Assembly: GCA_041738135.1 (NCBI GenBank)
Contig: JBGSQK010000020.1
Span: 18,082 to 82,081 of the forward strand
Source: Alphaproteobacteria bacterium
GTDB lineage: Bacteria > Pseudomonadota > Alphaproteobacteria > JAGOMX01
Direction: 5' to 3'
Length of the DNA: 64,000 nucleotides
Shown: in pieces, positions 41,631 through 58,938 of the stretch
How the letters are laid out: each line of letters begins with the position of its first letter
How positions within the stretch are numbered: position 1 is the stretch's first letter
The notes under the pieces: generated by a model
Told to the model about the DNA's origin: nothing
Seen by the model: the letters and a program-made list of their open reading frames with translations, nothing else
Databases searched by the model: none
Translations under genes and position numbers: made by a program

Positions 41631-41634
41631 ATGA

Positions 41635-42033: not shown

Positions 42034-42110
42034 GCGTCCTTAGCTCAGTTGGATAGAGCACCGGCCTTCTAAGCCGGGTGTCGCAGGTTCGAATCCTGCA
42101 GGACGCGCCA
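42034..42110 (+). tRNA. tRNA-Arg (anticodon TCT), CCA encoded
   Basis: GCGTCCTTAGCTCAGTTGGATAGAGCACCGGCCTTCTAAGCCGGGTGTCGCAGGTTCGAATCCTGCAGGACGCGCCA has anticodon loop CTTCTAA. Confidence 0.9.
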
Positions 42111-42120
42111 TTTTCTTATG

Positions 42121-43002
42121 CTATGACGTTTCCAAAGTAAGTTTCAGACTATTTCTAGCAGAACCCCGCGGCAGAGCTTTTTGCTGCTCTTCATGATAGG
42201 CCCAACCTGTCAGATAAATAATTTCAAAGGTAGCGGAGATACGTTTGTCCGCAAGACCGTGGTTCTCCACATAAATCTTCTCCACTAAGTTAAAAAACCT
42301 CCTCGAGGACATAAACTTATGACGGTCACACATCACGTTTGTGAGCCCCATCAAACGCATGTCTTGCATTAAAACAGATAGATTGGGGTACTCAACCCTA
42401 ATAACATCACGATCCGCAACCGGTAATTTGAAATCAGCTCTTACCAACAATTGGGACGCTGAATATAAATCGACCATAGGCGCTACACGGGGCGAAGCCC
42501 CTCCGTAAAGCTGCATTTCCGCCTGCAAAAATGATGCCTTGAGTTCCTTTAAAGTATCACCACCTAAAAACGCCCCAATAAATAAACCATCCGGTTTTAA
42601 TATATTGCGAATTTGAATAAGTATGCCGGGAAGATCGTTGACCCAATGGAGATTCAGGTTTGATAAAACTAAATCTTTGCTCTCCGATTTACATAAATGC
42701 GAAGCACTAGAATCAAGGCTCAAAATAGTTTCATCAGAAAAATGTCCTAGATTATTGATCCCCTGATCACCATGGCCCAAAGATTGAATTTGATGTATGA
42801 AGTCAAAACCACAAGCGCCCATGGTTAAAACATGGGGAAACTGACGTTTAACAAATGCAAGTCTATCTATAATGCTGGAGTTGGTATGCTGGGCAAGGAA
42901 ATCTGACTTCTCACAATAGCGTTTTAAACGAGCTATACGCAACCCGTTATCAAACAGATTAGGCGATGATGTCGGGGAAGAGGAAATTTTCAAGCTGGAC
43001 AA
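42121..43002 (-). CDS. Class-I SAM-dependent methyltransferase, NDUFAF5/BioC-like
   Basis: FDNGLRIARLKRY...FLAQHTNSSIIDRLAFVKRQFPHVL, motif I (VLTMGACGF) and a downstream LKPDGLFIGAFLGGDTL resemble alphaproteobacterial NDUFAF5 homologs. It has a TTG start and a 44-bp overlap with the upstream DUF465 gene, so the start is uncertain. Confidence 0.6.
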   Translation of the reverse strand: MSSLKISSSPTSSPNLFDNGLRIARLKRYCEKSDFLAQHTNSSIIDRLAFVKRQFPHVLTMGACGFDFIHQIQSLGHGDQGINNLGHFSDETILSLDSSASHLCKSESKDLVLSNLNLHWVNDLPGILIQIRNILKPDGLFIGAFLGGDTLKELKASFLQAEMQLYGGASPRVAPMVDLYSASQLLVRADFKLPVADRDVIRVEYPNLSVLMQDMRLMGLTNVMCDRHKFMSSRRFFNLVEKIYVENHGLADKRISATFEIIYLTGWAYHEEQQKALPRGSARNSLKLTLETS

Positions 43003-43165
43003 TTTGATCTTTCAAAACGAGCTTCTTACGTTTGAGTGTTTGTAATGTCATGTGATCCACAACGGTTTCCTTCATGAGAAGGCTTAGCCGCTCATCTAAA
43101 TCTCGGTGTTCCTCTCGCAATCTTTGCAGTTGATTCAAAAGGTCTAGTTTATCGTTCATGATCAT
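42959..43165 (-). CDS. DUF465 (YdcH-like) small protein
   Basis: The 68-aa ORF reads LQRLREEHRDLDERLSLLMKETVVDHMTLQTLKRKKLVLKDQIVQLEN, matching the DUF465 pattern (...HRxLD..I.......D...L..LK+.KL.LKD.I..L). Confidence 0.65.
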   Translation of the reverse strand: MIMNDKLDLLNQLQRLREEHRDLDERLSLLMKETVVDHMTLQTLKRKKLVLKDQIVQLENFLFPDIIA

Positions 43166-43295
43166 ATGCTACCATTAACAGTTTACAGCCTAAATACAAC
43201 ATCATAATCTACTATAAATACATAAAGGTCAATTTATTAATCACACTTAAGACTTAAATGTTTATTTTTTACGATGGAAATCAACTGCAAAGCCC

Positions 43296-45089
43296 TTATC
43301 CCGTTAATGAATATTGATTCTGATCTATAGCCACATCGTCGATCACAAATTGTAGTTTTTCAACTCCCATCCACGTATCCAGTTTGATGCTACCAGCCAG
43401 ATGGACAGGGAAACCTCGATGATTAATGAGAGCTTGCCCCATATGCGTATTCACAGCTCTGAATGCGATGGCGTTAATTTTGGCATAGTCTAGTTGACCA
43501 GCCATAATTCGGATATGTTCACCTGCAAAGATATCCAATTTCAGTATTCTCAGGTTGGTTAGGGCAAATTTTGGTGTGGGATTCCCTGAACCAAACGGTG
43601 CTAACGCATCAATCTTGTGAACCAATTGGGGCGTTATAGCGTTAAGATTCAAGACCCCATCTAGCTCCAAAACAGGCACATTATCTTCAGACATAAACTG
43701 GGATGCGCGTTGATTTAGAAATGCTTGCAACTCCGGAATTTTAGATTCTTCCACAGTGAAGCCAGCCGCCATGGCATGCCCACCGCCTGCCATCAAAATA
43801 CCACTTTGTTTTGCTGCTTGAATCATGGAGCCCAGGTCAACGCCGGCAATAGATCTGGCTGACCCTTTGCCTATGCCTTCTTGCGAAAGACTGATAACAC
43901 AAGCCGGGCGATTGTATTTTTCTTTAAGACGGCCCGCAACGATACCGATAACGCCCGCGTGCCATTCTCGATCGGCCACCACAATAATAGAGGAAAGCTG
44001 GGTTTGCGCTTGCCTAAATGCGGCATTCAGCACTTCTTGCTCAATCTCTTTACGCACCCGATTATACTCGTCAAGCCTTAAGGCTATCTCTTCCGCTTGA
44101 ATAGAATTTTCGGTTCTCAAAAGCAAAGAGCCAAGCCCCGCCTCCCCCACTCGCCCACCAGCATTAATGCGAGGACCCAATACGAATCCCAAATGATAAG
44201 TGCTGGGAAGTGAATCAATTTTAGTAATATTACTTAAAGTCTTTAGCCCCAGGTTATTGCGCGCTGCCAATACCTTCAAACCCTGCTTCACAAATGTGCG
44301 ATTGAGTCCACGCAAAGGCATCACATCACAAACCGTCCCTAGGGCCACCAAATCCAGCAAGTTTTTAAGGTTTGGTTCTTGTATAAATTCAAAAAATCCC
44401 GATTGACGAAGATGACGATTTAACGCCACGGCTAACAAGAATGACATCCCCACAGCAGCCAAGCTTTGCAAAGGATTAGTTGGCTCGTCTAGCCTATTAG
44501 GGTTAACTATGGCAAAAGCTTGTGGTAGCTTGGGCTCCGCCACATGGTGATCGATGACAATGACATCCAAACCAATTTCCGCCGCACGAGCGAGGGGCTC
44601 AAATGATGTGGTGCCACAATCCACAGTTATAACCAAATCCGTGCCCTCTTGGCGTAACATCTCAAAAGCTGCATTATTAGGTCCATAACCTTCATCGATA
44701 CGATCTGGGATGTATACGCGGACAGGAAGCCCCAATTGGCTAAAATAGCGAAACAAGAGCGCTGACGAGGTTGCACCATCCACATCATAATCGCCAAATA
44801 TAACGATTTTTTGCTTTTCAGCCACAGCCAAAGCTATACGCCCCACCGCTTTTTCCATATCCTTGAGCATATAAGGATCAGGTAGGGTTTCTTTTAATGT
44901 GGGGTTTAAAAATTGTAACGCTTCATCCGGCTGAAAACCACGCGCTGCCAGCATTTGGGCTACGATTGGCGGAAGCGTCAATCTTTGGGATAGTAAAAGC
45001 GCATCTTTTTCGCTATAGGGTCGCAAAGCCCATTTCTTCCCCGACTCAGAAGATTGGACATTAAATGGACCTTTGTCGTCATTTGTCAT
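43296..45089 (-). CDS. recJ: Single-stranded-DNA-specific exonuclease RecJ
   Basis: DHH motifs (IVIFGDYDVDGATS, VIVIDHH) and DHHA1 (GGGHAMAAG) are present. It is 597 aa. Confidence 0.9.
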   Translation of the reverse strand: MTNDDKGPFNVQSSESGKKWALRPYSEKDALLLSQRLTLPPIVAQMLAARGFQPDEALQFLNPTLKETLPDPYMLKDMEKAVGRIALAVAEKQKIVIFGDYDVDGATSSALLFRYFSQLGLPVRVYIPDRIDEGYGPNNAAFEMLRQEGTDLVITVDCGTTSFEPLARAAEIGLDVIVIDHHVAEPKLPQAFAIVNPNRLDEPTNPLQSLAAVGMSFLLAVALNRHLRQSGFFEFIQEPNLKNLLDLVALGTVCDVMPLRGLNRTFVKQGLKVLAARNNLGLKTLSNITKIDSLPSTYHLGFVLGPRINAGGRVGEAGLGSLLLRTENSIQAEEIALRLDEYNRVRKEIEQEVLNAAFRQAQTQLSSIIVVADREWHAGVIGIVAGRLKEKYNRPACVISLSQEGIGKGSARSIAGVDLGSMIQAAKQSGILMAGGGHAMAAGFTVEESKIPELQAFLNQRASQFMSEDNVPVLELDGVLNLNAITPQLVHKIDALAPFGSGNPTPKFALTNLRILKLDIFAGEHIRIMAGQLDYAKINAIAFRAVNTHMGQALINHRGFPVHLAGSIKLDTWMGVEKLQFVIDDVAIDQNQYSLTG

Positions 45090-46060
45090 TGTGTGATTCG
45101 ACCGATTCTCAGGAATTTCTCTTGTCTTTGTTTTCGCAGCTGCTCACCACTCAAATTTGCCATAGATTTGAGAGCTTGTTCAATAGAATCACCAATAGCA
45201 GTTATAGTTTTAGCTGCATTGCGATGCGCGCCCCCAACAGGTTCTTCAATTATCTTGTCAACAATATGCAGCTTAATGAGGTCCTGCGCAGTAAGCTGCA
45301 AGGCCTCCGCAGCAAGCTCGCGCTTTTCGCTCGTGCGCCATAAAATAGAGGCGCAGCCTTCCGGTGAAATAACTGAATAAATGGAATGCTCGAGGATATT
45401 AACATAATTGGCCACAGCCAGCGCAATTGCACCACCGGATCCCCCCTCACCTGTTATAGTGGCAACCACCGGGATCTGTAAATCGGCCATGGTTTCAATA
45501 CAAGCCGCAATGGCTTCGGCCTGGCCACGCTCTTCCGCATCAATGCCCGGGTGTGCGCCTGCCGTATCTACTAAAGTGATCAATGGAATTTGGAATTTTT
45601 CAGCCAGAAGCATTAGCCTTTTGGCTTTACGATAGCCCTCAGGTCTCGCCATACCGAAATTGTGGCGTATGCGTGATTCCGTATCACGACCTTTCTGATG
45701 ACCCATAATCATAACGGTTTGCCCGCGGAAACGACCAATACCTGCAATAATGGCTTGATCCTCTGCAAAGTTGCGATCGCCGCTCAGCTCAACAAAATCA
45801 TCAACCAAGCCCGTGAGATACTCCTTAAAGCTAGGGCGTTCCACATGCCGTGCCACCAGTACCTTTTGCCATGGTGTAAGTTTGGAATAGGTTGCTTCAA
45901 GTTGCTTTTCTATCTTCAGCTTTAAATCACTGATCTCAGCAGAATTATTTGGATTGCCAGCAAGAGGCATATGCAAAAGCTCGTCGAGCCTGCTTTCCAT
46001 CACATGAATTGCTTTTTCAAATTCTAAAGGTGTAACCATATTGATTCCTTGAATACTCAC
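45086..46060 (-). CDS. accA: Acetyl-CoA carboxylase carboxyltransferase subunit alpha
   Basis: ARHVERPSFKEYLTGLVDDFVELSGDR...IIAGIGRFRGQTVMIMGHQKGRDT...FGMARPEGYRKAKRLM is collinear with AccA. Confidence 0.9.
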   Translation of the reverse strand: MSIQGINMVTPLEFEKAIHVMESRLDELLHMPLAGNPNNSAEISDLKLKIEKQLEATYSKLTPWQKVLVARHVERPSFKEYLTGLVDDFVELSGDRNFAEDQAIIAGIGRFRGQTVMIMGHQKGRDTESRIRHNFGMARPEGYRKAKRLMLLAEKFQIPLITLVDTAGAHPGIDAEERGQAEAIAACIETMADLQIPVVATITGEGGSGGAIALAVANYVNILEHSIYSVISPEGCASILWRTSEKRELAAEALQLTAQDLIKLHIVDKIIEEPVGGAHRNAAKTITAIGDSIEQALKSMANLSGEQLRKQRQEKFLRIGRITQ

Positions 46061-46977
46061 ATACTATGTTGTGCCAATTTTGCGAGCGGATGGCAAGCAT
46101 TAACCACTTCTGTCAGACGATCGGTTGCCACATGGGTATATATTTCAGTAGTAGAAATGTCTTCATGACCTAGTAATTTCTGCACACTTACAAGATCTGC
46201 ACCATTATTTAATAGGTGTGTAGCAAAAGCATGTCGCAGAACGTGAGGCGAAACCTTGTAAGGCTCAATCCCGGCATCCATAGCCAGTTCCTTCAACAGT
46301 TGTCCAATACGTTGACGGGTTAGATAGCCCGTGTTACTTGGCGAAGGAAAAAGGTATAAAGATTCCTTTTGGCCAAGAAACCCTGCACGTATACCCATAT
46401 ATTTAACGATGATTGCAGAAGCTATTTCAGGAAGAGGCAGAACGCGCTCTTTGCGCCCCTTCCCTTTAACGAGAATAAGGGGGATACCGCTTTCTGTGGT
46501 CATGAATGAACTTAAAGGCAGAGAAACCAGCTCCGAAACGCGCATACCTGTTGCATATAGCAGCTCCAGAAGCGTTGCCAACCGTATACCTTCCGGGCCC
46601 GATTTTTGATGCGCCGCGGTCAGTAGCAATGTAACCTCTTGTTCCGTCAGGATTTTGGGCAACGCATTGCTGAGCTTGGGACTGGAAATATCATTGACTG
46701 GATTATCCATAATATGGCGTTCACTAAAAAGGAACGAAAAAAACTGTTTTAAACTTGAAAGTTGGCGAGCAATGGTCCTGGTGGAATAATGCTTTTCAGA
46801 CAGATGTTTAAGATATGCTTGCAGATCCTCAAGGGCCAACTCGCTGACCGCTTTACCTTTTAAAAAGCTAATGAAGCACAAGCAGTCACGACGGTAGGAT
46901 TCTACCGTGTGACCGGACGCATTCTTTTCTGCAATGAGCATTTCGCAGAATTGTTCAACAAAAATCTCATTCTTCAT
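46057..46977 (-). CDS. xerD: Tyrosine recombinase XerD
   Basis: The N-terminal SAM-like domain is MLIAEKNASGHTVESYRRDCLCF. Catalytic R..H.LRH..AT.L...G....V...LGH......YTH is present with the tyrosine in EIYTHV. Confidence 0.85.
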   Translation of the reverse strand: MKNEIFVEQFCEMLIAEKNASGHTVESYRRDCLCFISFLKGKAVSELALEDLQAYLKHLSEKHYSTRTIARQLSSLKQFFSFLFSERHIMDNPVNDISSPKLSNALPKILTEQEVTLLLTAAHQKSGPEGIRLATLLELLYATGMRVSELVSLPLSSFMTTESGIPLILVKGKGRKERVLPLPEIASAIIVKYMGIRAGFLGQKESLYLFPSPSNTGYLTRQRIGQLLKELAMDAGIEPYKVSPHVLRHAFATHLLNNGADLVSVQKLLGHEDISTTEIYTHVATDRLTEVVNACHPLAKLAQHSM

Positions 46978-47158
46978 GCTTTTTTTCAGCTTTCGGGAAA
47001 AAGCGACTGTTTGAAAAAGTTACCTTTACCTCGCCCGAAGGTGCTGGTATACCCCATGTAGCAAGTGATGCTATAGCCAATATGAGGCTTAGAGCTAGCA
47101 CGAGCCAAAGAACTTTAATTGCGATTGACATGTTTTCCTCTTTGAGTTGCGAAACCAT
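46967..47158 (-). CDS. Small hypothetical membrane protein (63 aa)
   Basis: It has a single predicted TM helix (IAIKVLWLVLALSLILAIASLATW) and overlaps the xerD start by 11 bp. It may not be a real gene. Confidence 0.25.
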   Translation of the reverse strand: MVSQLKEENMSIAIKVLWLVLALSLILAIASLATWGIPAPSGEVKVTFSNSRFFPKAEKKHEE

Positions 47159-47219
47159 CGTAGTAGATTAATCTATATACGCAAGAAGAACAACATGGGA
47201 TTCACGAAAAGCTAATGAA

Positions 47220-47804
47220 TTGAAGATGAAAGAATTATTTGAGGTTGCATTACCTAAGACAGTAGTCTTAATTGGAATGATGGGGGTTGGTAAAACCAGC
47301 ATCGGGCGTCGCTTGGCTAAAAAGCTGGGTGTGGAGTTTATTGATTCTGACCACGAGGTTGAAATTGCAGCCAAATGTTCGGTGTCTGATATTTTCGAAA
47401 TCTATGGTGAAGACGCTTTTAGAGATGTGGAAAGAAGGGTGATTTCGCGCTTGCTTAGCGACAAGCCCCATATTCTTGCCACAGGTGGCGGTGCTTTTAC
47501 GGATGAAGAATCCATAAAAGTTATCCAGGAAAATGGTATATCCGTTTGGCTCAAAGCAGAGGCGGAAACACTCCTGCCGAGACTAGAAAGAAGAGATCAC
47601 CGCCCTCAATTCCATCAGGGTGACATTGCTCAAGAATTGACCGAGCTTCTGGATAAATACACACCTTTTTACGAACGCGCTGTTATTCAAGTGGATTGTA
47701 CAGGCAGCTCGCCGGAGGCGACCACCGATAAAATCTTGCTTGAGCTCAATCGCTTTTTATCAAAATTGCAAATGAAGAGCGGGCAGAAAATTAACCATGT
47801 CTAA
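47220..47804 (+). CDS. aroK: Shikimate kinase
   Basis: Walker A (VVLIGMMGVGKTSIGRRLAKKLG), DSD, and the shikimate-binding and LID regions are present. Confidence 0.85.
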   Translation: MKMKELFEVALPKTVVLIGMMGVGKTSIGRRLAKKLGVEFIDSDHEVEIAAKCSVSDIFEIYGEDAFRDVERRVISRLLSDKPHILATGGGAFTDEESIKVIQENGISVWLKAEAETLLPRLERRDHRPQFHQGDIAQELTELLDKYTPFYERAVIQVDCTGSSPEATTDKILLELNRFLSKLQMKSGQKINHV

Positions 47805-48561
47805 AGCAGCTTGTCTTAAGTGGTTAAATTCCATTGGTGATGATATTTTAATAGCCTCTTGTCCCAGCGATCTGGTAGCGGAACCTGTACAAACTATTAA
47901 GCGTAAAAGACCAGTGGCTGTCCATTCAATGTCCGCTTCCAGTATTCAAATATCGTCTTCTGTGCGTGAACTTGTAAAACAAGTAAACTCCTTGGCTGAA
48001 CTCAGGCAGTTAATGGAAAAATTCGATGGCTGCGAGTTGAAAAAAACCGCGAACAAGATGGTTTTTGGCGATGGTAACCCAGAATCAAAAATCATGCTCA
48101 TAGGAGAAGCTCCTGGCGCAGATGAGGATAAGATAGGTCTGCCTTTTGTGGGGGCCAGTGGTAAATTGCTCGATCAGATGCTTTCGTGCATCGGCCTTAC
48201 TCGTGCCAATTATTATATCACTAACATCATACCTTGGCGTCCACCAGGCAACCGGGATCCAACAGCTGAAGAACGGGAAATATGTTTGCCATTTGTTGAA
48301 CGGCGCATTGAGCTCATAAGGCCCAAAGTGATCGTCATGGTGGGTGGTGTCGCAGCGAAATCCTTACTGAATATTGCGACTGGAATCACTGGGATTAGGG
48401 GGCAATGGCAGCCCTACAAGACACCTGCTATGAGTCATGCCATAGATGCATTTGCTATTTATCATCCATCATATTTACTGCGATCGCCTGGGCAAAAGAG
48501 GATTGCTTGGAAGGATTTGTTGGTTTTAAAGCAGAAGCTAAATGAACTGGGCTTGCTTTAA
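47797..48561 (+). CDS. Uracil-DNA glycosylase, family 4 type
   Basis: GDGNPESKIMLIGEAPGADEDKIGLPFVGASGKLLDQML carries the GEAPG(xxE) motif with conserved F/G. It overlaps the aroK stop by 8 bp. Confidence 0.8.
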   Translation: MSKAACLKWLNSIGDDILIASCPSDLVAEPVQTIKRKRPVAVHSMSASSIQISSSVRELVKQVNSLAELRQLMEKFDGCELKKTANKMVFGDGNPESKIMLIGEAPGADEDKIGLPFVGASGKLLDQMLSCIGLTRANYYITNIIPWRPPGNRDPTAEEREICLPFVERRIELIRPKVIVMVGGVAAKSLLNIATGITGIRGQWQPYKTPAMSHAIDAFAIYHPSYLLRSPGQKRIAWKDLLVLKQKLNELGLL

Positions 48562-48563
48562 GA

Positions 48564-49589
48564 TTATGATTCTAAGAGTTTCTTCATCATTAATGTTTGT
48601 CTGTGCCATTGTTTTATAGGGATAGCTGGAATACCTCCTACTTTTTGCCCAGATTCTATATTTTTTGCAATCCCAGATTTTCCGGCTATAAATACATTGC
48701 TTCCTATTTTCAAATGATCAGCAACACCCGCTTGCCCGCCGATAAACACGTTGTCACCTATAACTGTATTCCCTGCAATGCCTACTTGGCTGACAAGGGT
48801 ACATCGTCTGCCGATCGCAACTCCGTGACCGATAGATACGTTGCTATAGATGCTTGTAAAATCTCCAATGACTGTGTCGCCAATGCTGCCCCTATCTATA
48901 ACAGTATTGGCTCCTACGTCAACGTTCTGACCCACAAATACACGACCAACTTGCGGTAAGGAAAAAGTGCCAGTTTTATCAGAATAGGATTCTAACGTGG
49001 ATTGACCTAGTTTGACACCCGTCGCAAGAGTTACCTTATCACTGATCAGGCAATGACTTAAATGGCAGTGCGCTCCGATACTACAGTATTGTCCAATTTG
49101 GACACCTTGCTCAATAATGCTATGGGGATGAATTTCTGTATTATCTTTGATAATAACATCTCGACCAATGATAACATAAGGAGCTATATGCACATTCTGG
49201 CCAATTTTGGCAGTTGGATGAATGCGGGCAGTCGGATCCTGATATTGAGGAAGTGTCTGTTTAGGATAGAATGCAGACAAAATTGTGGCATAATCCCTGA
49301 AGGGCGTGTCGGTAGGAATGCAGATAGTGTTTTGAGGAATACTCTTCATGAGGCCCTTGGGAATAATGCATATACCAGCCTTGGTATTACTAAGGAGCTC
49401 CTTATGCCGTGCCACATGAATCACTGCTATATGCTCTTGGGTTGCGAGCTCTATTTTTACTACATCCGTATATTTTTTTAAGGGATCATAGTTTGTAGGT
49501 AAAATGGACGGCACTTCCGAGCCTATGAGTTTGCATAGCTCCTCTAAAGTGAAAGGTCCTAAACGTTTATAAAATCTCGAATCTGCCAT
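48564..49589 (-). CDS. lpxD: UDP-3-O-(3-hydroxyacyl)glucosamine N-acyltransferase
   Basis: An N-terminal LpxD domain (MADSRFYKRLGPFTLEEL) is followed by a long left-handed beta-helix of hexapeptide repeats and a C-terminal helix. Confidence 0.85.
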   Translation of the reverse strand: MADSRFYKRLGPFTLEELCKLIGSEVPSILPTNYDPLKKYTDVVKIELATQEHIAVIHVARHKELLSNTKAGICIIPKGLMKSIPQNTICIPTDTPFRDYATILSAFYPKQTLPQYQDPTARIHPTAKIGQNVHIAPYVIIGRDVIIKDNTEIHPHSIIEQGVQIGQYCSIGAHCHLSHCLISDKVTLATGVKLGQSTLESYSDKTGTFSLPQVGRVFVGQNVDVGANTVIDRGSIGDTVIGDFTSIYSNVSIGHGVAIGRRCTLVSQVGIAGNTVIGDNVFIGGQAGVADHLKIGSNVFIAGKSGIAKNIESGQKVGGIPAIPIKQWHRQTLMMKKLLES

Positions 49590-49599
49590 TTCTTATACC

Positions 49600-52542
49600 T
49601 TAGACCGGGTCATGTACGATGACTTGGACAATTGCTTCAACTTGAACAATTGCTCCATTGTCGTGGCTTATGTAAGTATGATAATCGCCGGCTTGAGATC
49701 CTGCAGGGGGTGGTGCTGCAGCATCATTTAATTCCCAGTTTCCAGTACTCAAATTGACAATGTCGCTAGAATCGCCATGGAATATGATCGTATTATTGGT
49801 TGCTCCAATATTCAGTACATCAGATGCAGTGATAGAAACTGTATTTGCCAAGCCGTTGCTCATATCAATAGTTTCTATATTATTAATATTGGAAAATGTG
49901 ATCAGGCCGCTATCGTTCATCTGCAGGGTATCCATACCAGAGCCACCATCTATCAAAACATCCGTTGCATCGTAAACTATAGTGTCACTTCCTGAACCTG
50001 CACGAATAGTGTCGGCACCTGCCCCCCCATCAATGAAGTCATTGCCGCCGAGGCCATTGTCCGCACCTCCTGCATCACCATATATGGTGTCGTTTCCTGC
50101 ACCACCATAAATGGTATCATTGCCGCCATGTGCAGAACCTGCTAGATTTCCAGCCGTATCGCCATATATAGTGTCATTACCTGCATCACCATAAATAGTA
50201 TCGTTTCCTCCTTGAGAATTACCAGACATATTGCCTGCGGCATCGCCATAGATGATATCAGCTCCAGATCCGCCATGTATGTTGTCGTTGCCACCAACAG
50301 TGTTGTCAGCCATCGTGCCACCAGCATCTCCATAAATATTATCAGCAGCTGCACCACCATAAATCGTATCGTGACCGCCCAAAGCCGAACTGGACAAATT
50401 ACCACCCACATCACCGTATAGATTATTACCGGCTTTACCTCCAGCTCCGTCACCACCATGGATAATATCTGACCCCATTGTACCATTTGATATATTTCCA
50501 GAGGCGTCGCCATATACTATATCTGTGCCGGCTAAAGTATAAAAAGCTTGGTTTGTCGTGTTTCCTGTCATTGTATCGTTGCCGGATGTGCCAGTAGCTA
50601 CATCAAGGGTCTGCATGTTAAAGGTGTTCGAGACTTTTGCTCCCGAAGAATCGGTTGCAGTGACAGTTATATTAGCAGAGCTTGAATCTGAATATCCCGG
50701 CATTCCTGAAATAACACCTGTTTGAGAATCAATGGTGGCCCATGATGGTGCCCCGCTCATGGTATAAGTGAGAGAAGCACCCGCATCAACATCTGAGAAA
50801 AATGAAGAGACGTTATAGTTTACAGCCTGACCTTCTTCGCCAACAAATGCGGCAATCTGAGATACCGTTGGCGCGTCATTGGTATTGTTAACTGTGAGCT
50901 GGAAAGTATCTTGTACGGTTGAACCATGTGAGTCAGTAGCGACTACGGTGATGTTGGCAACTCCCACGTCGCCGTTGGCAGGCGTACCTGAAATGACGCC
51001 TGTGTTGGCATCAATGGTAACCCAAGCTGGAGTAACATTGGCCAAAGAATAGGTCAACGAATCGCCCACGTCTACATCCGCAAATTGCCCTGAGACATTG
51101 TAGTTCAATGCTGCATCTTCATTTACGGAAGTATCAGCAATGGGCGTGACCGTTGGGGCGTCATTGGTATTGTTCACTGTGATCTGGAAGGTATCTGTCA
51201 CAGTTGAGCCATGTGAGTCTGTGGCGATTATTGTTATGTTGGCAGATCCCACATCGCCGTTGCCTGGAGTTCCTGTAATCACGCCTGTGTTAGCATCAAT
51301 GGTGACCCAAGCTGGAGCACCATTAGCCAGGGAAAAGGTTAAATGATCGCCCGCGTCTATATCCGTAAAGTGTCCTGCCACATTGTAATGCAATGCTGCA
51401 TCCTCATTTATGGAAGTGTCGTTTATAGGGATTGCCGTCGGGGCATGCTCTACAGCATTTACGCCTATACTTAGGGAGCTCGAAATGCTTTGTCCTTGGC
51501 TATCTGTAGCTATTATAGTTAAATGCAAAATCCCTATATCACCGTGCCCCGGAGAACCAGTAAGAACACCGGTGGTTGCGTTCATACTTACCCAGGATGG
51601 CAGTGGGCTGCCGTCTTGAAGGATAGCGCTAAAGGTCAGATGATCACCTGTGTCTATATCACTAAAATAGCTATTTAAGTTCACGTTCAGGCCAGCTCCC
51701 TCATTAACGAATGTATCTGAGATAGCGATTACGGTTGGTGTATGGTTAGTATTAACTGGTGTGTCAATGAGCGTTTCTAAGTTTAACTGTGATTGTGAAG
51801 GGATTGCTACTTTTGTGGCAGTGATATGAAGACTAGAAATCCCCGATGGTTCACTGAAGGTGAATGTTGGTGTAATTGTTGTTTGGGCAACATCAAGCGA
51901 TTCATCATCCGTTTCAGTTAATAAGGCAGGATCTCCTGTTGTATGGTATTTACTTAGTACGGCGTTAAAGTCTTGTGATGTTTGCGTAGCAGCAGAATCC
52001 TGATTGCCCTCTGCATCAGCTGGATCCGTATGCGCATGGTTGGTTTCTTCAGATTGATTGTCATCACCTTCTTGGGTCTTTGCTTGTTCCGTATTACTCC
52101 TTATATCTGAAAATGCTAGCAAAGAAAGATTACTTACTGTTAGCTGAGAAATTGTGCTGTCCGCATTTATGACTGGATTGAGATTGTTTGCAGGGCCATT
52201 ACCCATATCTCGCAAATTGCCATTTGAAGAATTGAAATTAAAACGAGCAATATCTAAAATGTGGCTTTGAATATGAGTCGTACTTAATAGCATAATAGCG
52301 GCAAGGGCAGAGTCAGCTGAAATGGAGACATTGTTTTCATTTATAGCTATTGAGATTAGATCGGAAGAATTGTTTTGTGTGATCAGGTTTGAGTTATGTT
52401 CTTTTGAAGAATGATTATTTAATGTTGAACCATCATAGCTCATTGAGGTATTTAAAGAGACTATGGCAAATGACGAACTATTTCCATTATTATTTTGTTG
52501 CTTGCTCATAAATCTACCTGACTCAAGTTTCCTCGACTTCAT
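49600..52542 (-). CDS. Large exoprotein: Ser/Asn-rich N-terminus, four cadherin-like/Ig-like ~100-aa repeats, C-terminal RTX (GGxGxD) calcium-binding repeats
   Basis: Four tandem domains follow the pattern (D/H)APTV.PI.DT.VNEDAAL.YNV.G.F.D.D.GD.LT.SLAN..P.WVTIDANTGVI.GTP.NGDVG.ANIT..ATDSHGSTV. Then come at least 12 nonapeptide repeats (GGNDTIYGDAGNDTIYGD...). This architecture is typical of type-I-secreted adhesins. Confidence 0.75.
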   Translation of the reverse strand: MKSRKLESGRFMSKQQNNNGNSSSFAIVSLNTSMSYDGSTLNNHSSKEHNSNLITQNNSSDLISIAINENNVSISADSALAAIMLLSTTHIQSHILDIARFNFNSSNGNLRDMGNGPANNLNPVINADSTISQLTVSNLSLLAFSDIRSNTEQAKTQEGDDNQSEETNHAHTDPADAEGNQDSAATQTSQDFNAVLSKYHTTGDPALLTETDDESLDVAQTTITPTFTFSEPSGISSLHITATKVAIPSQSQLNLETLIDTPVNTNHTPTVIAISDTFVNEGAGLNVNLNSYFSDIDTGDHLTFSAILQDGSPLPSWVSMNATTGVLTGSPGHGDIGILHLTIIATDSQGQSISSSLSIGVNAVEHAPTAIPINDTSINEDAALHYNVAGHFTDIDAGDHLTFSLANGAPAWVTIDANTGVITGTPGNGDVGSANITIIATDSHGSTVTDTFQITVNNTNDAPTVTPIADTSVNEDAALNYNVSGQFADVDVGDSLTYSLANVTPAWVTIDANTGVISGTPANGDVGVANITVVATDSHGSTVQDTFQLTVNNTNDAPTVSQIAAFVGEEGQAVNYNVSSFFSDVDAGASLTYTMSGAPSWATIDSQTGVISGMPGYSDSSSANITVTATDSSGAKVSNTFNMQTLDVATGTSGNDTMTGNTTNQAFYTLAGTDIVYGDASGNISNGTMGSDIIHGGDGAGGKAGNNLYGDVGGNLSSSALGGHDTIYGGAAADNIYGDAGGTMADNTVGGNDNIHGGSGADIIYGDAAGNMSGNSQGGNDTIYGDAGNDTIYGDTAGNLAGSAHGGNDTIYGGAGNDTIYGDAGGADNGLGGNDFIDGGAGADTIRAGSGSDTIVYDATDVLIDGGSGMDTLQMNDSGLITFSNINNIETIDMSNGLANTVSITASDVLNIGATNNTIIFHGDSSDIVNLSTGNWELNDAAAPPPAGSQAGDYHTYISHDNGAIVQVEAIVQVIVHDPV

Positions 52543-52591
52543 TAGATCATGATAGTGTTGACAAAAAGTTAAAGCTTCCTGATTTATGAAT

Positions 52592-53980
52592 TTACAACAA
52601 TAGGAATGTGGCCAGTCCTAAAAATATGGAGTAACCGAGAACATCCGTTGTGGTGGTAAGCAAGGGTCCTGCGCTGATAGCCGGATCCATACCTAGTCTT
52701 CGCACCATGATTGGGACAAAAGTTCCCGCAAAACCTGCCCACATCATATTGCAAATCAATGCAATTCCTAAAACGATGCCAATGTATAAGTCGCCCAGCC
52801 AAACAGCGGCCACCGATCCAAGAATGAAGGCGAACAAAGCGCTCGTATTCATAGCCACTAGAATTTCCTTCGCTATGGATTTACGTGTATTGTTGCTATC
52901 TAGCTCCTTGGTTGCAAGGGCACGAACCGTAACCGTTATAGTTTGCATACCTGCATTACCGCCCATGGCCGCAACGATAACCATAAGAAAGGACAAAGCT
53001 ACTTTTTCCTCAATAGAATTTTGGAACTGCGAGATCACGCTTGAGGCAATGAGGGTGTTTATCAGGGTTACAAAAAGCCATCTAGACCTATGGTATGCCG
53101 TCTGAAATACGGGCGCGTGAAAGTCTGATTCAGACACACCAGCCAAGTGCATAATGTCGGCTTCCACTTCTTCTTCAATCACGTCAACGATGTCGTCCAC
53201 CGTGATCATACCTACGATTCGGCCATTGGGGCTAACCACAGGCGCTGAGACCAGTGCATAGTGCTGGAATATCCTGGCAACCTCTTCTTGCTCCATGGAT
53301 ACGGGAATGGATTTGATTTGCGTATCCATGACTTCGGCTATAGGACTATTCGTTGGAAACCTTAACAACGTGTCCAGCGATACAACGCCAATGGGATGGT
53401 GCTTTGGGTCCACCACGTACACATCATAAAAGGATTCGGGTAGCTCTTGAGATTCTCTTATGAAATCGATCACTTCCTGGATTGTCCAGAAGGTGGGCAC
53501 ACATACGATTTCTCGTTGCATTAAACGGCCGGCACTGGATTCAGGGAAGGTTAAAACTTCTTCGAGCATTGCGCGATTCTTCGCGGGAATTGCTCGCAAA
53601 ATTGCTCGCTGTTCTTGTCTGTCCAGATCCTCAAGCAGATGGATAGCATCGTCCGAGTCAAGCCCCGCTAAGGCAGCGGCAACGGCTCCTGGTCCTACCA
53701 ACCTTAACACTTGTTCTTTAACTTGGTCTTCAAGATGTGCTAATACGTCAGGATCAATTTGCGTCTTTATGCTGTCGACAAATTTTTCTCTGATATCATA
53801 ATCTAGGTTAGCAATAAGATCTGCTACGTCAGCCGCATGCAACGGCCCCGTGATTTCCTGAACACGTTCGATGTCGCCTTCTTCCAAAGCAATACGAATG
53901 TGTTCCACAAGTTCATTGGACACACCATAGGTGGGAGAAGTGTTATCCAGATCTAGCTTTTCTTGCTCATCCATTGTCAT
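52592..53980 (-). CDS. mgtE: Magnesium transporter MgtE
   Basis: An N-terminal MgtE-N domain, tandem CBS domains and a C-terminal five-TM channel domain with Mg-site Asp are present. Confidence 0.85.
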   Translation of the reverse strand: MTMDEQEKLDLDNTSPTYGVSNELVEHIRIALEEGDIERVQEITGPLHAADVADLIANLDYDIREKFVDSIKTQIDPDVLAHLEDQVKEQVLRLVGPGAVAAALAGLDSDDAIHLLEDLDRQEQRAILRAIPAKNRAMLEEVLTFPESSAGRLMQREIVCVPTFWTIQEVIDFIRESQELPESFYDVYVVDPKHHPIGVVSLDTLLRFPTNSPIAEVMDTQIKSIPVSMEQEEVARIFQHYALVSAPVVSPNGRIVGMITVDDIVDVIEEEVEADIMHLAGVSESDFHAPVFQTAYHRSRWLFVTLINTLIASSVISQFQNSIEEKVALSFLMVIVAAMGGNAGMQTITVTVRALATKELDSNNTRKSIAKEILVAMNTSALFAFILGSVAAVWLGDLYIGIVLGIALICNMMWAGFAGTFVPIMVRRLGMDPAISAGPLLTTTTDVLGYSIFLGLATFLLL

Positions 53981-53989
53981 AGCAAATCC

Positions 53990-56305
53990 TTAAGCCAAAG
54001 CACTGTTATCAAGCAAAACATCCGTTTGCTTTATTTGAGCATCAACCACAGCCATGGCTGTCATATTCACAATCCGTCTAACGGTCGCGGATGGCGTCAG
54101 TATATGCGCTGGATGATCGAGTCCCAGCATAATGGGTCCGATAGACTGTCCTTCTGCAATTGATTTCACCAGGTTAAAAGCAATATTTGCTGAGTCCATA
54201 TTGGGCATGACCAGCAAATTGGCTCGGCCCGTTAAAACGGAGTTTGGAAAGATCTTTTCTCTGATGATGGGATCGATAGCCGTATCTCCATGCATCTCCC
54301 CATCCACTTCAAGTTCTGGGGCCAGCTGCCTGATTATTCTTAAGGCTTCTTGCATCTTAAGAGCTGTTTCAGAGTCATTGGAACCAAAGTTAGAATGGGA
54401 CAACAAGGCAACTTTTGGAATTATATTGAATTGACGTATTTGCTCCGCTGCCAAGATAGTATTTTCTGCAATTTGCTCGGCTGTAGGATTACTGTTAACA
54501 TATGCATCGCAGAAGAAAAGTGTACCCATATGGGTAACTAGAGCTGATAGTGATGAGGTAATACTCACACCATCTTGCATACCTAAGATTGGCTTTATAT
54601 TTTTCAAATGGTTCTGAAACAAACCAATGGGCCCCGCTAGCATAGCATCCGCCTCTTTTCGATGAACCATTAATGCTGCGATAACACTAGTATTGGTGCG
54701 CACCACTGTTTTTGCGGCATCGGGCGTTACCCCTTTGCGTTCTAACAGGTTTAAGTAACATTGGGTATAAGCTTTGTATCGCGGATCGTCTTGAGGATCT
54801 ACCAGTATAAAATCCCTGTCCATCTTCAATCGCAGACCTAACTTACTTATGCGGTTGTTGATCACGTCTTTTCTGCCGATAAGAACTGGTTCGGCAAGCT
54901 TTTCATCTACAACCACTTGTACCGCGCGCAAGACTCTTTCGTCTTCAGCTTCAGCATAAGCTACGCGTTTAGGACTTGCCATGGCGCGGTTGAAGATTGG
55001 CTTCATCACCAAACCTGAACGAAAGACGAATTCGGATAGTTTCTGCCTATAGGCTACAAAATCTGTAATAGGTCTTGTGGCAACGCCCGTGTCCATAGCT
55101 GCTTTTGCAACGGCTGGCGGGATTTCAATGATAAGGCGCGGATCAAATGGTTTCGGGATAATGTAGTCAGGCCCAAATTGTAATTCTTGTCCGCCGTAGG
55201 CGACCGCCACGATATCAGAAGGTTCCGCTTGAGCAAGATCAGAGATAGCCTTTACGCAAGCCAACATCATTTCCATATTGATGCTGGTTGCGCCCACATC
55301 CAAAGCACCGCGGAAAATATAAGGGAAGCACAGTACATTGTTCACCTGGTTTGGATAATCCGAGCGGCCTGTAGCTATGATTGCATCCGGCCTTGCTTCT
55401 TTTGCTATGCGAGGATCAATTTCTGGATCTGGATTGGCAAGAGCTAAAATTATTGGATTTTCTGCCATTTTCTTGACCGATTCAGCTGTCATTACATTAC
55501 CGGCTGAAACGCCTAAAAACAAATCGGCACCCTCAATGGCATCATCTAATGTGCGACATTTTGTTTTAGTTTGGTATTTAGCTTTGAAAGCATCGATTTC
55601 GCCTTCACGGCCTTCATAAATCACGCCCTTTAAATCAACCATGATGATATTGCTTTTTTTCAGGCCCAAGGCAACAAGCAAATCAAGGCATGCAATAGCT
55701 GCAGCGCCGGCGCCAGAACATACAAGACGGACTTGCGTGATGTCTTTTTTAACAAGCTTCAAGCCATTGAGCATGGCTGCTGCAGTAATAATGGCTGTGC
55801 CATGCTGGTCATCGTGAAATACTGGAATTTTGAGTCGTTCTTTTAATTTTTCTTCCACATAAAAACACTCAGGCGCCTTGATATCTTCCAGGTTCATAGC
55901 GCCAAAGGTGGGCTCTAAACTGGCGATGATATCGACCAGCTTATCGGGATCATTTTCATTGATTTCAATGTCAAAAACATCAATATTGGCAAATTTTTTA
56001 AATAGGACTGCTTTGCCTTCCATGACAGGCTTGGAAGCCAACGGACCAATAGCGCCCAATCCCAATACGGCTGTGCCGTTGGTTATAACGCCTACTAAAT
56101 TGGCTCTGGATGTAAGACTGGCAACTTGCATCTCATCTTTTACGATTTCTTCGCAAGCAGCAGCAACCCCTGGTGAGTATGCCAAGGCCAGATCTCGCTG
56201 ATTCGCAAGTGGTTTGGTCGCTATGACTTCCAGTTTTCCTGGCGTGGGAAAACGATGATAGTCTAGCGCGCTCTGATAAATTTTACTGACCATGCCACAA
56301 TCCAT
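53990..56305 (-). CDS. maeB: NADP-dependent malic enzyme (malic enzyme + PTA-like C-terminal domain)
   Basis: [12 protein letters not shown]...[10 protein letters not shown] is the malic enzyme N-terminal signature. The 771-aa size and a phosphotransacetylase-like C-terminal half match MaeB. Confidence 0.85.
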
Positions 56306-56473
56306 TTTCTATTGTGTGCCAATTATAGCACGTTGTGTGTCAAGCTAAATCAAAATTGTTAAAGTAGGGGCAAAAACAATTTTACTTTCTTCGCACAGAC
56401 TATTTACAAAATTGCTAGAAACAGCCATAACATGACAAGGCTGCTCATGAAGATGTCCTTGAGAACTTATCAT

Positions 56474-56613
56474 TCTCCCGTGTCTTCCCGGCCTTGAGCC
56501 GGTATACAGTTTAACTAAGCTTTGCGCAGCAACTTCAGTATAGAACATATGGAGTCGCTATCGCTCCAATTATGGCGCTGGATCCCGGCTCTAGGCAGGT
56601 AAGACACGGGAGA
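56474..56613. repeat. Palindromic element E with 13-bp perfect terminal inverted repeat (TCTCCCGTGTCTT...AAGACACGGGAGA)
   Basis: Its internal core (GAGTCGCTATCGC...GCGCTGGATCCCGGC) resembles the family A core (GAGCCGCTATCGCGGCACTCATTATCTGGATCCCACGC). It lies in the divergent maeB/gpt intergenic region. Confidence 0.5.
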
Positions 56614-56689
56614 ACGTAGAGTTTTTGAATATAAATGATATTTCATGAGGTGCCCCTGCATAACATTCAAAACCACGGGAGTCTGTGAG

Positions 56690-57175
56690 ATGCCGAATAA
56701 TTTAACCCTCAGCTGGAAACAGTTTGAAGAAGATACCGATCAACTCACGCAAAAATTACTTGCATTGGATCAGAAGTGGACTGCCATTGTGGCCATCGCC
56801 AGAGGCGGTCTGGTGCCTGCAGCCATCGTTTCAAACAGGCTCGACATTCATTGGGTCGACACCATTTGTATGAGTAGCTATGACGATGAAACATTTCAGC
56901 AACATCACATGGAAGTTTTAAAAGAATTCAAAAGCGAGAGTCAAAATATCTTAGTGATCGATGACTTAGTAGATTCTGGCAACACTTTTAAGCTCGTGCG
57001 TGAAATGCTACCTAACGCTCACTTTGCCTGCGTTTATGCAAAACCCGCTGGCATCCCAGCAACAGACACGTATTTCCGTGAAGTTGCAGGTGACACCTGG
57101 CTCGTCTTCCCATGGGAAGAACAGATTGAAGATCAATCATCCGTGGATTTAAGCGCAGCCAAGAACGCGCTTTGA
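56690..57175 (+). CDS. gpt: Xanthine-guanine phosphoribosyltransferase
   Basis: [17 protein letters not shown]...[34 protein letters not shown]...[35 protein letters not shown] is collinear with E. coli Gpt. The start is taken at MPNNLT. Confidence 0.8.
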
Positions 57176-58938
57176 GGGATTTCCACGTTACCGATGTTCC
57201 TCATGCGTTTTTTACCTTTTTTCTGCTTGTCTAGCAGCTTCCTTTTGCGGGAGACGTCTCCGCCATAGCATTTGGCGAGCACGTCTTTGCGCATGGCGGA
57301 GACGGTTTCGCGGGCTACGATTTTTCCGCCGATGGCGGCTTGGATGGCTATTTTAAATAGTTGTCTTGGGATTAGGTCTTTAAGTTTTGCGCATAGGATA
57401 CGACCGCGTTTTTCTGCTTGGGCGCGATTGACGATGATGGAGAGTGCGTCAACGGGCTCCGCATTGACCAAGATTGAAAGTTTAACCAATTCGCCTTCAC
57501 GGTATTCATCCACATGGTAGTCAAAGCTAGCATAGCCGCGACTGATGGATTTCAGGCGGTCATAGAAATCAAATACGATTTCGTTGAGTGGTAGTTTGTA
57601 TACAACCATGGCCCTACTGCCCACATAAGTGAGATCCACTTGCTCGCCACGTCGTTCCGTGCAGAGATTTAAAATGGGCCCTAGGTATTCGTCTGGTACC
57701 ATGATGGTGGCTCGTATCCATGGCTCTTCGATGTGATCGATGCGCACTACGTCAGGCATATCGGCTGGATTATGCAGCTCCAATAAATCGCCGTTGGTCA
57801 GATGAATTTTGTACACAACGCTTGGGGCTGTGGTAATCAAATCTAGGTCAAATTCGCGTTCTAGGCGTTCTTGAATGATTTCCAAGTGCAGCAAACCTAA
57901 AAAACCGCAACGGAAGCCAAAGCCTAAGGCGGCTGAGGTTTCGGGTTCGTAATGGAAGCTGGCATCATTTAGATGTAAGCGTTCGAGACTTTGTCTTAAG
58001 TGTTCAAATTCACCGGCATCGATAGGGAACAAACCACAGAACACAACCGGGACGCTTGGCTTGAAGCCGGCAAGGGCTTCGGTTGCGGGATTGCGATCAT
58101 CGGTGATGGTATCACCCACGTTACAATCGGCCACGTATTTAATGCTGGCGGTGATAAAGCCCACTTCGCCAGGGCCTAATTCATCGATGATTTCGCGCTT
58201 CGGTGTGAACACACCCACTTGCTCGATTTGGTAGCTAGCACCGGTGGACATCATGCGGATTTTCATGCCTTTGCGCATAATTCCGTCCTTAATTCGCACT
58301 AGAATGATAACGCCCAGATAAGCATCGTACCAGCTGTCAATCAGCAGTGCTTTTAATGTGGCATCTTCGACGCCTTGCGGCGGAGGAAGCAATGTGACGA
58401 TGGCTTCCAGCACATCTTCGATACCAATACCTGTTTTGGCGGAGATCATCAGAGCCTGGCTGGCATCAAGGCCGATCACATCTTCAATCTGTTGCTTGAT
58501 CCGATCAGGTTCCGCGGCGGGAAGATCGATCTTATTCAACACGGGGATAATTTCGTGATTGTTATCCAATGCCAGATACACGTTGGCAAGGGTTTGTGCT
58601 TCCACGCCTTGGCTGGCATCCACCACTAGCAAGGATCCTTCACATGCTGCTAAAGACCGGCTTACCTCGTAGGTAAAGTCCACGTGGCCAGGGGTGTCCA
58701 TCAGGTTTAGCTGATAGGTTTGCCCGTCATGCGCTTTGTAATTGAGGCGAACGGTTTGCGCCTTGATGGTAATACCGCGCTCACGCTCAATATCCATGGT
58801 ATCGAGCATCTGCGTTTGCAGTTCACGTTTTTCTATGGCACCACATTTCTCTATCAAGCGGTCGGCCAGCGTTGATTTTCCGTGATCGATATGAGCAATA
58901 ATCGAGAAATTTCTTATGCGCTCTAAAGGCATTGTCAT
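57133..58938 (-). CDS. lepA: Elongation factor 4 (LepA)
   Basis: [21 protein letters not shown] forms the G domain, followed by EF-G-like domains and the LepA-specific C-terminal domain. Confidence 0.9.

Follow-up and report, generated by a model that had tools for sequence, protein, structure and literature searches.

The open reading frame between lpxD and mgtE

What kind of protein does the long ORF between lpxD and mgtE encode, and how could it leave the cell when no secretion genes lie beside it? The ORF is located in a window of 64 kb (the whole stretch of DNA that was analysed). An earlier note, made from the sequence, had described its 980-aa product as a cadherin-like RTX exoprotein with the architecture of type-I-secreted adhesins or toxins. 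We found that the ORF is real and carries the expected Pfam domains, and that lpxD and mgtE flank it as that note had stated (Table 1). The explanation that best covers all the data, to which we assign a probability of about 0.65, is a calcium-dependent RTX exoprotein of ~99 kDa with cadherin-like domains, exported by a type I secretion system (T1SS) and acting as an adhesin or matrix protein.

Table 1. Positions of the gene, its encoded regions and its two neighbours in the window
Feature	Residues	Position	Strand	Remarks
Whole ORF		49600..52542	(-)	980 aa; stop codon 49600-49602 included in coordinates
N-terminal region	1-267	51742..52542	(-)	Ser/Asn/Thr-rich, acidic, no signal peptide
He_PIG D1	268-366	51445..51741	(-)	Pfam, AlphaFold; degenerate linker to D2 (VNAVEHAPT)
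He_PIG D2	367-461	51160..51444	(-)	terminal cadherin-type Ca2+ linker motif NNTNDAP
He_PIG D3	462-556	50875..51159	(-)	80% nt and 78% aa identity to D2
He_PIG D4	557-647	50602..50874	(-)	Pfam, AlphaFold
RTX block	648-860 (~210 aa)	49963..50601	(-)	Gly/Asp-rich calcium-binding repeats; Pfam, PDB matches, AlphaFold
84-nt super-repeat DNA copies		50074-50157, 50158-50241, 50326-50409	(-)	mutual identity 67-74%
C-terminal tail	861-980 (120 aa)	49603..49962	(-)	presumed uncleaved T1SS secretion signal region
lpxD		48564..49589	(-)	downstream neighbour; begins 10 nt past the RTX-gene stop codon
mgtE		52592..53980	(-)	upstream neighbour; ends 49 nt before ATG1

The ORF is unbroken, with a GC content similar to that of the neighbouring genes, and a pseudogene reading was dropped for these reasons. 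The NCBI protein (969 aa, 100% identical) begins at Met12 of the 980-aa ORF, and the ATG of Met12 at 52509 is preceded by the Shine-Dalgarno-like AGGTAG. The true start is likely this Met12, giving a protein of 969 aa and 98.7 kDa. The protein has a pI of 4.05, with 109 acidic against 11 basic residues, and contains no cysteine. Its hydropathy maximum over a 19-residue window is 1.19, and within the first 100 aa the 15-residue maximum (1.85) lies at aa 72 to 86, away from the N-terminus. Judged by hydropathy, a cleavable N-terminal signal of the Sec or Tat type is predicted to be absent. The acidic pI, the absence of cysteine and the lack of a signal-peptide-like hydrophobic stretch together give the usual profile of a T1SS substrate. 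RTX proteins are described by the same properties, namely no Sec/Tat signal, an acidic composition and few or no cysteines (Linhartova et al. 2010, PMC3034196).

Domain architecture

Pfam detected four stretches of He_PIG (PF05345, the dystroglycan-type cadherin-like domain) with an E-value of 6.7e-64 and a score of 212.8 bits (cut-off 24); like other members of this family, they are ~95-aa beta-sandwiches above the gathering score. The AlphaFold2 model showed four beta-sandwiches with a pLDDT of ~92. The best Foldseek matches were cadherin and protocadherin ectodomains (E about 5e-19), and the tetra-tandem extender from an RTX adhesin of Aeromonas (6xi1) was also matched (E 1e-15, target-normalised TM ~0.5). 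These results bear out the four cadherin-like domains of ~100 aa proposed earlier. The domains are joined by cadherin-type linkers (NNTNDAP, DxD, xEDx), and the Ca2+ linker motifs are conserved across the four-domain alignment. In addition, a sequence search of the PDB gave weak matches to desmocollin-2 and alpha-dystroglycan. He_PIG arrays are present in 254 homologues, many of which have PF00353 as well.

The C-terminal block of GGxGxD nonapeptides that had been read from the sequence is likewise present. Pfam HemolysinCabind (PF00353) matched five stretches (E 2.7e-23), and nonapeptides of the pattern GGxGxDxUx, the repeat by which the RTX family is recognised (PMC3034196), can be read at aa 648 to 875. 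They are arranged in a super-repeat of 28 aa (84 nt) with the pattern GGxDxIY-GGxGxDxIY-GDxxGxxxxxxx, and in the AlphaFold2 model of this block short strands are paired at 28-aa intervals. The PDB sequence search matched the RTX blocks of CyaA and HlyA with E-values of 4e-21 to 1e-6. N-x-S/T sequons are enriched in the RTX region only, where the repeat motif GNDT accounts for them, and a glycosylation reading was therefore rejected.

The C-terminal tail contains no basic residues, its last ~50 aa have a pLDDT below 40, and it shares 37% identity with the C-terminus of a homologue (P0008). By eye, its pattern DGGxGxDTL ... IExID ... DVL resembles what we take to be the C-terminal target domain of the VC_A0849 subclass (TIGR03661). 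This model was not listed for the last 166 aa in an NCBIfam search with E up to 10, in a library whose inclusion of the model is unconfirmed, and neither a curated T1SS-signal model nor any other domain model was found in the C-terminal piece with NCBIfam and Pfam at E up to 10. The tail had no match in the PDB sequence search. A word-index search for homologues of the C-terminal 123 aa gave no match at all; since it missed even the protein itself, it carries no information. RTX proteins carry an uncleaved C-terminal secretion signal of ~60 residues that is recognised by the ABC transporter (PMC3034196). T1SS signals have no sequence consensus.

Export and proposed role

We looked for T1SS genes by reading the translations of ORFs of at least 240 aa (positions 1 to 43000) and at least 80 aa (44000 to 58000) and by Pfam searches of ten ORFs, including three beyond 58900. 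No ABC, MFP or TolC genes of a T1SS were found in the 64-kb window, in agreement with the earlier note. The substrates of a typical T1SS are encoded close by (PMC2275737). However, PrsDE of Rhizobium leguminosarum is not dedicated to a substrate encoded beside it but handles many dissimilar ones (PMC2275737, PMC9298526), and at least 12 are secreted by it, including the cadherin-like RL2961 and pRL100309 (PMC2275737). The homologue loci that we examined were also devoid of T1SS genes in all three contexts. Since these loci are alike and PrsDE secretes unlinked cadherin-like proteins, the missing T1SS genes are unremarkable. Export by a T1SS encoded outside the window is most likely.

RL2961, pRL100309 and the Rap family, all secreted by PrsDE, share with the protein studied here an alphaproteobacterial host, cadherin-like beta-sandwiches and the lack of a signal peptide. 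The PrsDE-secreted proteins are about 60 to 95 kDa in size and calcium-binding, a likeness drawn from their description and not from sequence (PMC2275737, PMC9298526). Rap proteins have Ra/CHDL domains and no RTX repeats, whereas the present protein combines He_PIG domains with a clear RTX block.

According to the general RTX/T1SS mechanism (PMC3034196), the low Ca2+ of the cytoplasm would keep the protein unfolded, an ABC/MFP/TolC T1SS encoded beyond the window would recognise its uncleaved C-terminal tail, and the chain would be threaded through with the C-terminus leading. Outside the cell, the beta-roll of the RTX block and the linkers between the domains would bind Ca2+, and the four domains would become a short, stiff rod, in the way that extender repeats are rigidified by Ca2+ (PMC7493085). 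Like the cadherin-like proteins that PrsDE secretes in Rhizobium, it may act as an adhesin or matrix protein that is either released or loosely attached to the cell surface. No ligand-binding domain was found between the extender and the RTX block.

With this reading, a protein that is nameless in the searched collection and comes from a poorly sampled alphaproteobacterial lineage can be assigned to a functional class with confidence. Proteins that combine He_PIG with RTX abound in metagenomes, yet our literature searches turned up no characterised one; with four domains and ~1000 aa, the present protein could serve as a compact example. Proteins of this kind are commonplace among the surface and secreted proteins of bacteria, and the importance of this one beyond annotation is slight.

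The N-terminal region

The orphan N-terminal third is the sole part of the protein that may hide something new. The earlier description of it as Ser/Asn-rich agrees with the measured composition (S 15%, N 12%, T 10%). AlphaFold gave it a pLDDT of ~30, with no confident fold and no folded domain. An exhaustive HMMER search of 1.84 billion representative proteins, with the first 256 aa as query, returned only the protein itself and one 47-aa Ig-like match in a 3831-aa protein. Only aa ~217 to 263 resemble a known unit, the C-terminal half of an Ig/He_PIG-like domain, and this segment looks like a decayed fifth domain. Neither a retention module nor any other domain was found in the N-terminal 256 to 291 aa by NCBIfam and Pfam searches with E up to 10.

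An acidic, S/N/T-rich stretch of 265 aa with such a low pLDDT and no counterpart in that collection could itself be the functional module of a T1SS-delivered host-interaction effector of a host-associated bacterium, with the cadherin-like and RTX parts serving mainly for export and spacing. The TRPs and Ank200 of Ehrlichia are RTX-related T1SS substrates (PMC3417381), and the TRPs are acidic, serine-rich tandem-repeat proteins. Furthermore, patatin-like and trypsin-like proteins are among the products of the window, as are several orphans with hydrophobic, signal-peptide-like N-termini. For both MgtE and MaeB, the homologues in Holosporales, Caedimonas and Paracaedibacteraceae MAGs are roughly as similar as those in any other group. 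However, our searches of the N-terminal region found neither tandem repeats nor known host-interaction motifs, and the window also holds a photolyase and a broad metabolic gene set. Low pLDDT in a region without homologues is not proof of disorder. We regard an effector as unlikely.

The repeat array and its assembly

The earlier note had reported near-identical DNA repeats at roughly 50600 to 51800, prone to repeat-number variation and assembly collapse. A tandem repeat with a period of ~285 nt indeed exists at 50602-51741 (TRF score 784), but the units are far from identical. Even in the closest pair, D2 and D3 (Table 1), 48 of the 95 codons differ, 27 of them synonymously, and every other pair of units shows 51 to 56% nucleotide identity. 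The longest exact direct repeat within the gene is 17 nt. The internal DNA repeats are old and diverged. Efficient RecA recombination usually needs roughly 20 to 30 nt of exact homology, and common assembler k-mers are longer than 17 nt as well. With exact repeats below both lengths and identity of at most 80%, the proposed instability and collapse are not supported.

The accompanying caution about the assembly is not entirely set aside. An independent Logan assembly (SRR28170464), the only other assembly of the locus, leaves 232 nt uncovered at 50921-51152 of the window, inside D3, while both flanks are 100% identical. The four-unit count thus rests on one assembly, the only one from which the full-length protein is known. 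The gene model could then be partly an artefact, with a different number of D2/D3-like units or with D3 as a chimera of strain variants, and in P0014, the closest relative, the tandem units are ~97% identical and the sequence breaks off within the array. However, the reading frame of D3 is unbroken, D3 is a complete domain with a pLDDT above 90 and its own diverged sequence, and exact repeats long enough to mislead an assembler (18 nt or more) are absent. A plain coverage gap accounts for the break equally well, and an artefact of this kind appears rather improbable. De Bruijn graph models with tandem identical units or a deletion variant predicted the Logan contig breaks 8 to 18 nt off and were discarded.

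Gene neighbourhood

The genes around the RTX gene are maeB, mgtE, lpxD, udg and aroK. No terminator-like site was found between the stop codon of the RTX gene and lpxD, and the sequence suggests that the two genes are probably co-transcribed. In a promoter and terminator scan of the locus, sites were no more frequent than in shuffled sequence. The maeB-mgtE pair is conserved in Alphaproteobacteria, and the genes after it vary. The best relatives of MgtE in a scan of genome contigs are only 48 to 56% identical. The adjacency to lpxD was kept in none of 80 related loci and hence looks accidental.

We consider it very doubtful that the N-terminal 265 aa are a lineage-specific functional module, for example for host targeting or surface tethering, on a minimal cadherin-like and RTX export scaffold, with the order mgtE-RTX-lpxD, on one strand and probably co-transcribed, reflecting real coupling. 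If true, this order would couple divalent-cation uptake, a Ca2+-dependent exoprotein and the synthesis of outer-membrane lipid A. Another reading is an RTX S-layer or envelope-coat protein like RsaA of Caulobacter, which would be secreted by a T1SS and bound again to LPS via its N-terminus; the place next to lpxD would then point to a functional tie with the outer-membrane surface. RsaA is paralleled in size (~1000 aa), in RTX motifs, in the alphaproteobacterial host and in T1SS export (PMC3034196), and only 10 nt, without a terminator, separate the gene from lpxD downstream. However, the N-terminus has no predicted fold, tandem cadherin-like beta-sandwiches mark extender or adhesin proteins and not known RTX S-layers, and the lpxD adjacency is not conserved, which makes an S-layer protein highly improbable.

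Comparison with known RTX and cadherin-like proteins

The preferred reading, a cadherin-like RTX exoprotein, places the protein near the biofilm-associated RTX adhesins. Tandem beta-sandwiches with Ca2+-binding linkers are shared with the extenders of these adhesins (6xi1 of Aeromonas hydrophila; LapA, MpIBP, FrhA and SiiE), and in both cases they are followed by C-terminal RTX repeats and by a T1SS signal, which is presumed here (PMC7493085). In contrast to the giant adhesins with thousands of residues, the present protein has only four repeats in ~1000 aa and lacks an N-terminal retention module, adjacent LapG, LapD or T1SS genes, and a ligand-binding domain before the RTX block. An anchored adhesin of the LapA type, a BTLCP-linked T1SS substrate that would have a folded N-terminal retention module with a LapG di-alanine cleavage site, was rejected because the N-terminal 256 to 291 aa gave no retention-module match and have neither a folded domain nor homologues, and because the neighbours are not a lapEBC-type T1SS or lapG/lapD.

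HlyA and CyaA have an RTX nonapeptide block in common with the protein, as well as a C-terminal T1SS signal that is presumed here, and the PDB matches to them are confined to the RTX blocks. A pore-forming toxin of this type was rejected, since no hydrophobic pore-forming domain is present at such a low hydropathy maximum and NCBIfam RTX_toxin (NF033943) scored 37.8 bits against a cut-off of 1000, in the repeat region only. No HlyC-type acyltransferase gene was recognised among the window ORFs inspected. Of the earlier reading as an adhesin or toxin, the RTX exoprotein or adhesin is thus supported by Pfam, the PDB matches, AlphaFold and Foldseek and the composition of the protein, whereas the pore-forming toxin is not. 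The protein also shares its fold and the calcium motifs of its linkers (NNTNDAP, which is DxNDxxP-like, and DxD) with the ectodomains of eukaryotic classical cadherins and protocadherins and with the cadherin-like domains of alpha-dystroglycan. Compared with eukaryotic cadherins, however, the protein is bacterial, has no transmembrane anchor, shows only 17 to 21% identity and is built of the He_PIG subfamily rather than canonical cadherin repeats.

Gene model and predicted architecture

The 980-aa exoprotein ORF described in the earlier note is borne out, coordinates included, as a single ORF in the ORF listing. An identical protein in NCBI (P0001; 969 aa, 100% identity), which is encoded on a contig of 120,998 nt and forms a singleton cluster in a large protein collection, begins at Met12 of this ORF. 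The two in-frame ATGs lie 33 nt apart, at window positions 52542 (ATG1) and 52509 (Met12). Because a Shine-Dalgarno-like AGGTAG lies 5 nt upstream of the Met12 ATG and no comparable motif precedes ATG1, the 969-aa form is the likelier product. It has a mass of 98.7 kDa, a pI of 4.05, 109 acidic versus 11 basic residues and no cysteine.

Positions of the RTX gene, its domains and other features (nt, window; aa, RTX protein)
Feature	Position	Strand	Remark
RTX gene	49600-52542 nt	-	
D1	aa 268-366		He_PIG unit
D2	aa 367-461		He_PIG unit
D3	aa 462-556		He_PIG unit
D4	aa 557-647		He_PIG unit
Tandem repeat	50602-51741 nt		Coincides with He_PIG array
mgtE	52592-53980 nt	-	Same strand as RTX gene; maeB precedes it
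maeB-mgtE pair	52592-56305 nt		
lpxD	48564-49589 nt	-	Same strand as RTX gene; starts 10 nt past RTX stop codon
liv-type amino-acid importer genes	4508-9475 nt		
Paralogous ORF, 592 aa	10583-12361 nt	-	
Paralogous ORF, 471 aa	12881-14296 nt	-	
Mito_fiss_Elm1 family gene	17264-18337 nt	-	PF06258
Signal-peptide-like ORFs, listed together with the trypsin-like and patatin-like ORFs	1415-2155, 21818-22816, 25630-26556, 31611-32600 (all -), 3203-4138 (+), 23259-24176 (-) nt		
211-aa ORF	40212-40847 nt		No Pfam match
ORF-poor stretch (~1.2 kb)	40850-42030 nt		No ORF >82 aa
tRNA gene	42034-42107 nt		

Four cadherin-like domains followed by C-terminal RTX repeats had been proposed, and Pfam, AlphaFold2 and Foldseek all agree with this class. 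Pfam assigned four He_PIG units (D1 to D4; E 6.7e-64), overlapped by weaker matches to Big_9, Cadherin_4/5 and RibLong, and five stretches of HemolysinCabind (E 2.7e-23). The alignment of D1 to D4 revealed cadherin-type calcium motifs, namely xNEDx close to the beginning of the unit, D(I/V)DxGD midway along it and ATDS; the linker VNNTNDAPT follows D2 and D3, and a degenerate form, VNAVEHAPT, joins D1 to D2. A 28-aa super-unit, GGxDxIY / GGxGxDxIY / GDxxGxxxxxxx, makes up the RTX block and corresponds to an 84-nt DNA repeat with 67-75% identity. In the AlphaFold2 prediction, made with a 29-sequence alignment, the array formed four beta-sandwiches (pLDDT ~92), and residues 675-856 showed paired short strands every 28 residues with moderate confidence; no confident fold was obtained for residues 1-263 (pLDDT ~30) or the last 50 residues. 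The top Foldseek matches in the PDB were cadherin, protocadherin and CELSR ectodomains (E ~5e-19 to 1e-15), and a further match was 6xi1, a tetra-tandem extender from an RTX adhesin of Aeromonas hydrophila. In the PDB sequence search, matches were confined to the CyaA and HlyA RTX blocks, apart from weak ones to desmocollin-2 and alpha-dystroglycan.

Probable secretion route and candidate role

We consider the protein, with a probability of about 0.65, to be a cadherin-like exoprotein exported by a type I secretion system (T1SS), a type of protein that is known and very common. The RTX protein fits the general description of T1SS substrates (PMC3034196): it is acidic and free of cysteine, lacks an N-terminal signal and carries RTX repeats in its C-terminal part. 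Its C-terminal region matched no curated secretion-signal model, such signals being without consensus; the tail shares 37% identity with the C-terminus of the homologue P0008.

The earlier note had rightly pointed out that the 64-kb window lacks genes for any type I ABC exporter, membrane fusion protein or TolC-like protein; according to the translations, its only ABC genes encode the liv-type importer. Typical T1SS secrete substrates encoded nearby, unlike PrsDE of Rhizobium leguminosarum, whose substrates are dissimilar and number at least 12, the cadherin-like RL2961 and pRL100309 among them (PMC2275737). Given this precedent, and since three homologues with both He_PIG and RTX domains (P0003, P0004 and P0011) likewise had no T1SS genes in the recovered flanks of up to 10 kb per side, the absence is not unusual. 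The protein would leave the cell via a T1SS, its short array would be made rigid by Ca2+, and it may serve as an adhesin or matrix component that is either released or loosely attached; our confidence in this adhesive role is lower than in the class and export route.

The N-terminal region is rich in Ser and Asn, as had been noted, and also in Thr; it is acidic, has no confident predicted fold, and no retention module was found in it. A search of 1.84 billion representative proteins returned no relative for residues 12-267, apart from a match to a 47-aa stretch (residues ~217-263). This stretch matches a repeated Ig-like element of a 3831-aa protein and can also be aligned to the C-terminal half of one He_PIG unit in P0014 (MBP6985867.1), the closest relative, a partial alphaproteobacterial protein with 59% identity over the array. 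The stretch seems to be what is left of a fifth domain that has decayed. The apparently disordered N-terminus might instead be the active part of a T1SS effector comparable to the Ehrlichia TRPs (PMC3417381), which we regard as unlikely.

DNA repeats and number of units

The internal repeats had been described as ~300-bp, near-identical and prone to repeat-number variation. A repeat with a period of ~285 nt (TRF score 784) does exist, but its units are not near-identical: D2 and D3 share 80% nucleotide and 78% amino acid identity, and all other pairs 51-56% nucleotide identity. D2 and D3 differ in 48 of 95 codons, 27 of them synonymously. The longest exact direct repeat within the gene is a 17-mer at both NNTNDA linkers, and with identities of at most 80% the expected proneness to repeat-number variation was not supported. 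On sequence grounds, the D1-D4 repeats are an old duplication without sign of recent homogenisation. In P0014, tandem units at residues 321-510 share ~97% identity, and its sequence stops inside the array; repeat expansion therefore occurs in the family, whose units can be recently amplified or homogenised, although this is not evident in the RTX gene.

In an independent Logan assembly of SRR28170464, the locus lies on two contigs (L085 and L086; 100% identity) covering 41531-50920 and 51153-56502, leaving 232 nt (50921-51152) inside D3 uncovered. The window sequence has no feature there that would break a k=31 graph, and exact repeats of 18 nt or longer are absent. Missing coverage, variation between strains, additional units or a paralogue may each explain the gap, so that a single assembly supports the number of four units. 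That the gene model is partly misassembled is rather improbable.

An RsaA-like S-layer protein is the most doubtful of the alternatives. A pore-forming RTX toxin and a LapA-type anchored adhesin were rejected, as the protein fails the tests for either class.

Gene neighbourhood

The gene lies between lpxD and mgtE, as previously described; maeB, mgtE, the RTX gene and lpxD share one strand, with no terminator-like site between them. MgtE and MaeB place the organism in Alphaproteobacteria without a close relative; their best identities (56% and 66%, respectively) were to MAGs with labels such as Rhodospirillaceae, Dongiaceae, Caedimonas and Holosporales. The maeB-mgtE pair was conserved in at least 24 of 80 alphaproteobacterial loci, and no RTX gene, He_PIG gene or lpxD followed mgtE in the loci with the pair. 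The RTX gene thus marks a break in synteny, and its position next to lpxD is probably fortuitous. The lpxD gene stands apart from the usual bamA-skp-lpxD-fabZ-lpxA cluster. The GC content of the RTX gene (41-48%; N-terminal part 37%) compared with its neighbourhood (42-50%) does not mark it as foreign.

Other features of the window

Two neighbouring paralogous ORFs, 592 and 471 aa long, share a coiled 'KVKxLEDHAV' start; each has a signal-peptide-like N-terminus, a beta-barrel-like composition and a hydrophobic residue at the C-terminus. Neither matched Pfam, and both probably encode porins or outer-membrane proteins specific to the lineage. Several further ORFs begin with a hydrophobic, signal-peptide-like segment, and their translations suggest no obvious function; the window also encodes one trypsin-like and one patatin-like protein, and together these may hint at a host-associated lifestyle. 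The ORF-poor stretch is flanked by the 211-aa ORF and the tRNA gene, and the Logan contig end at 41531 falls inside it. The Mito_fiss_Elm1 match is strong (E 6.8e-95); the family name comes from a plant mitochondrial fission factor.
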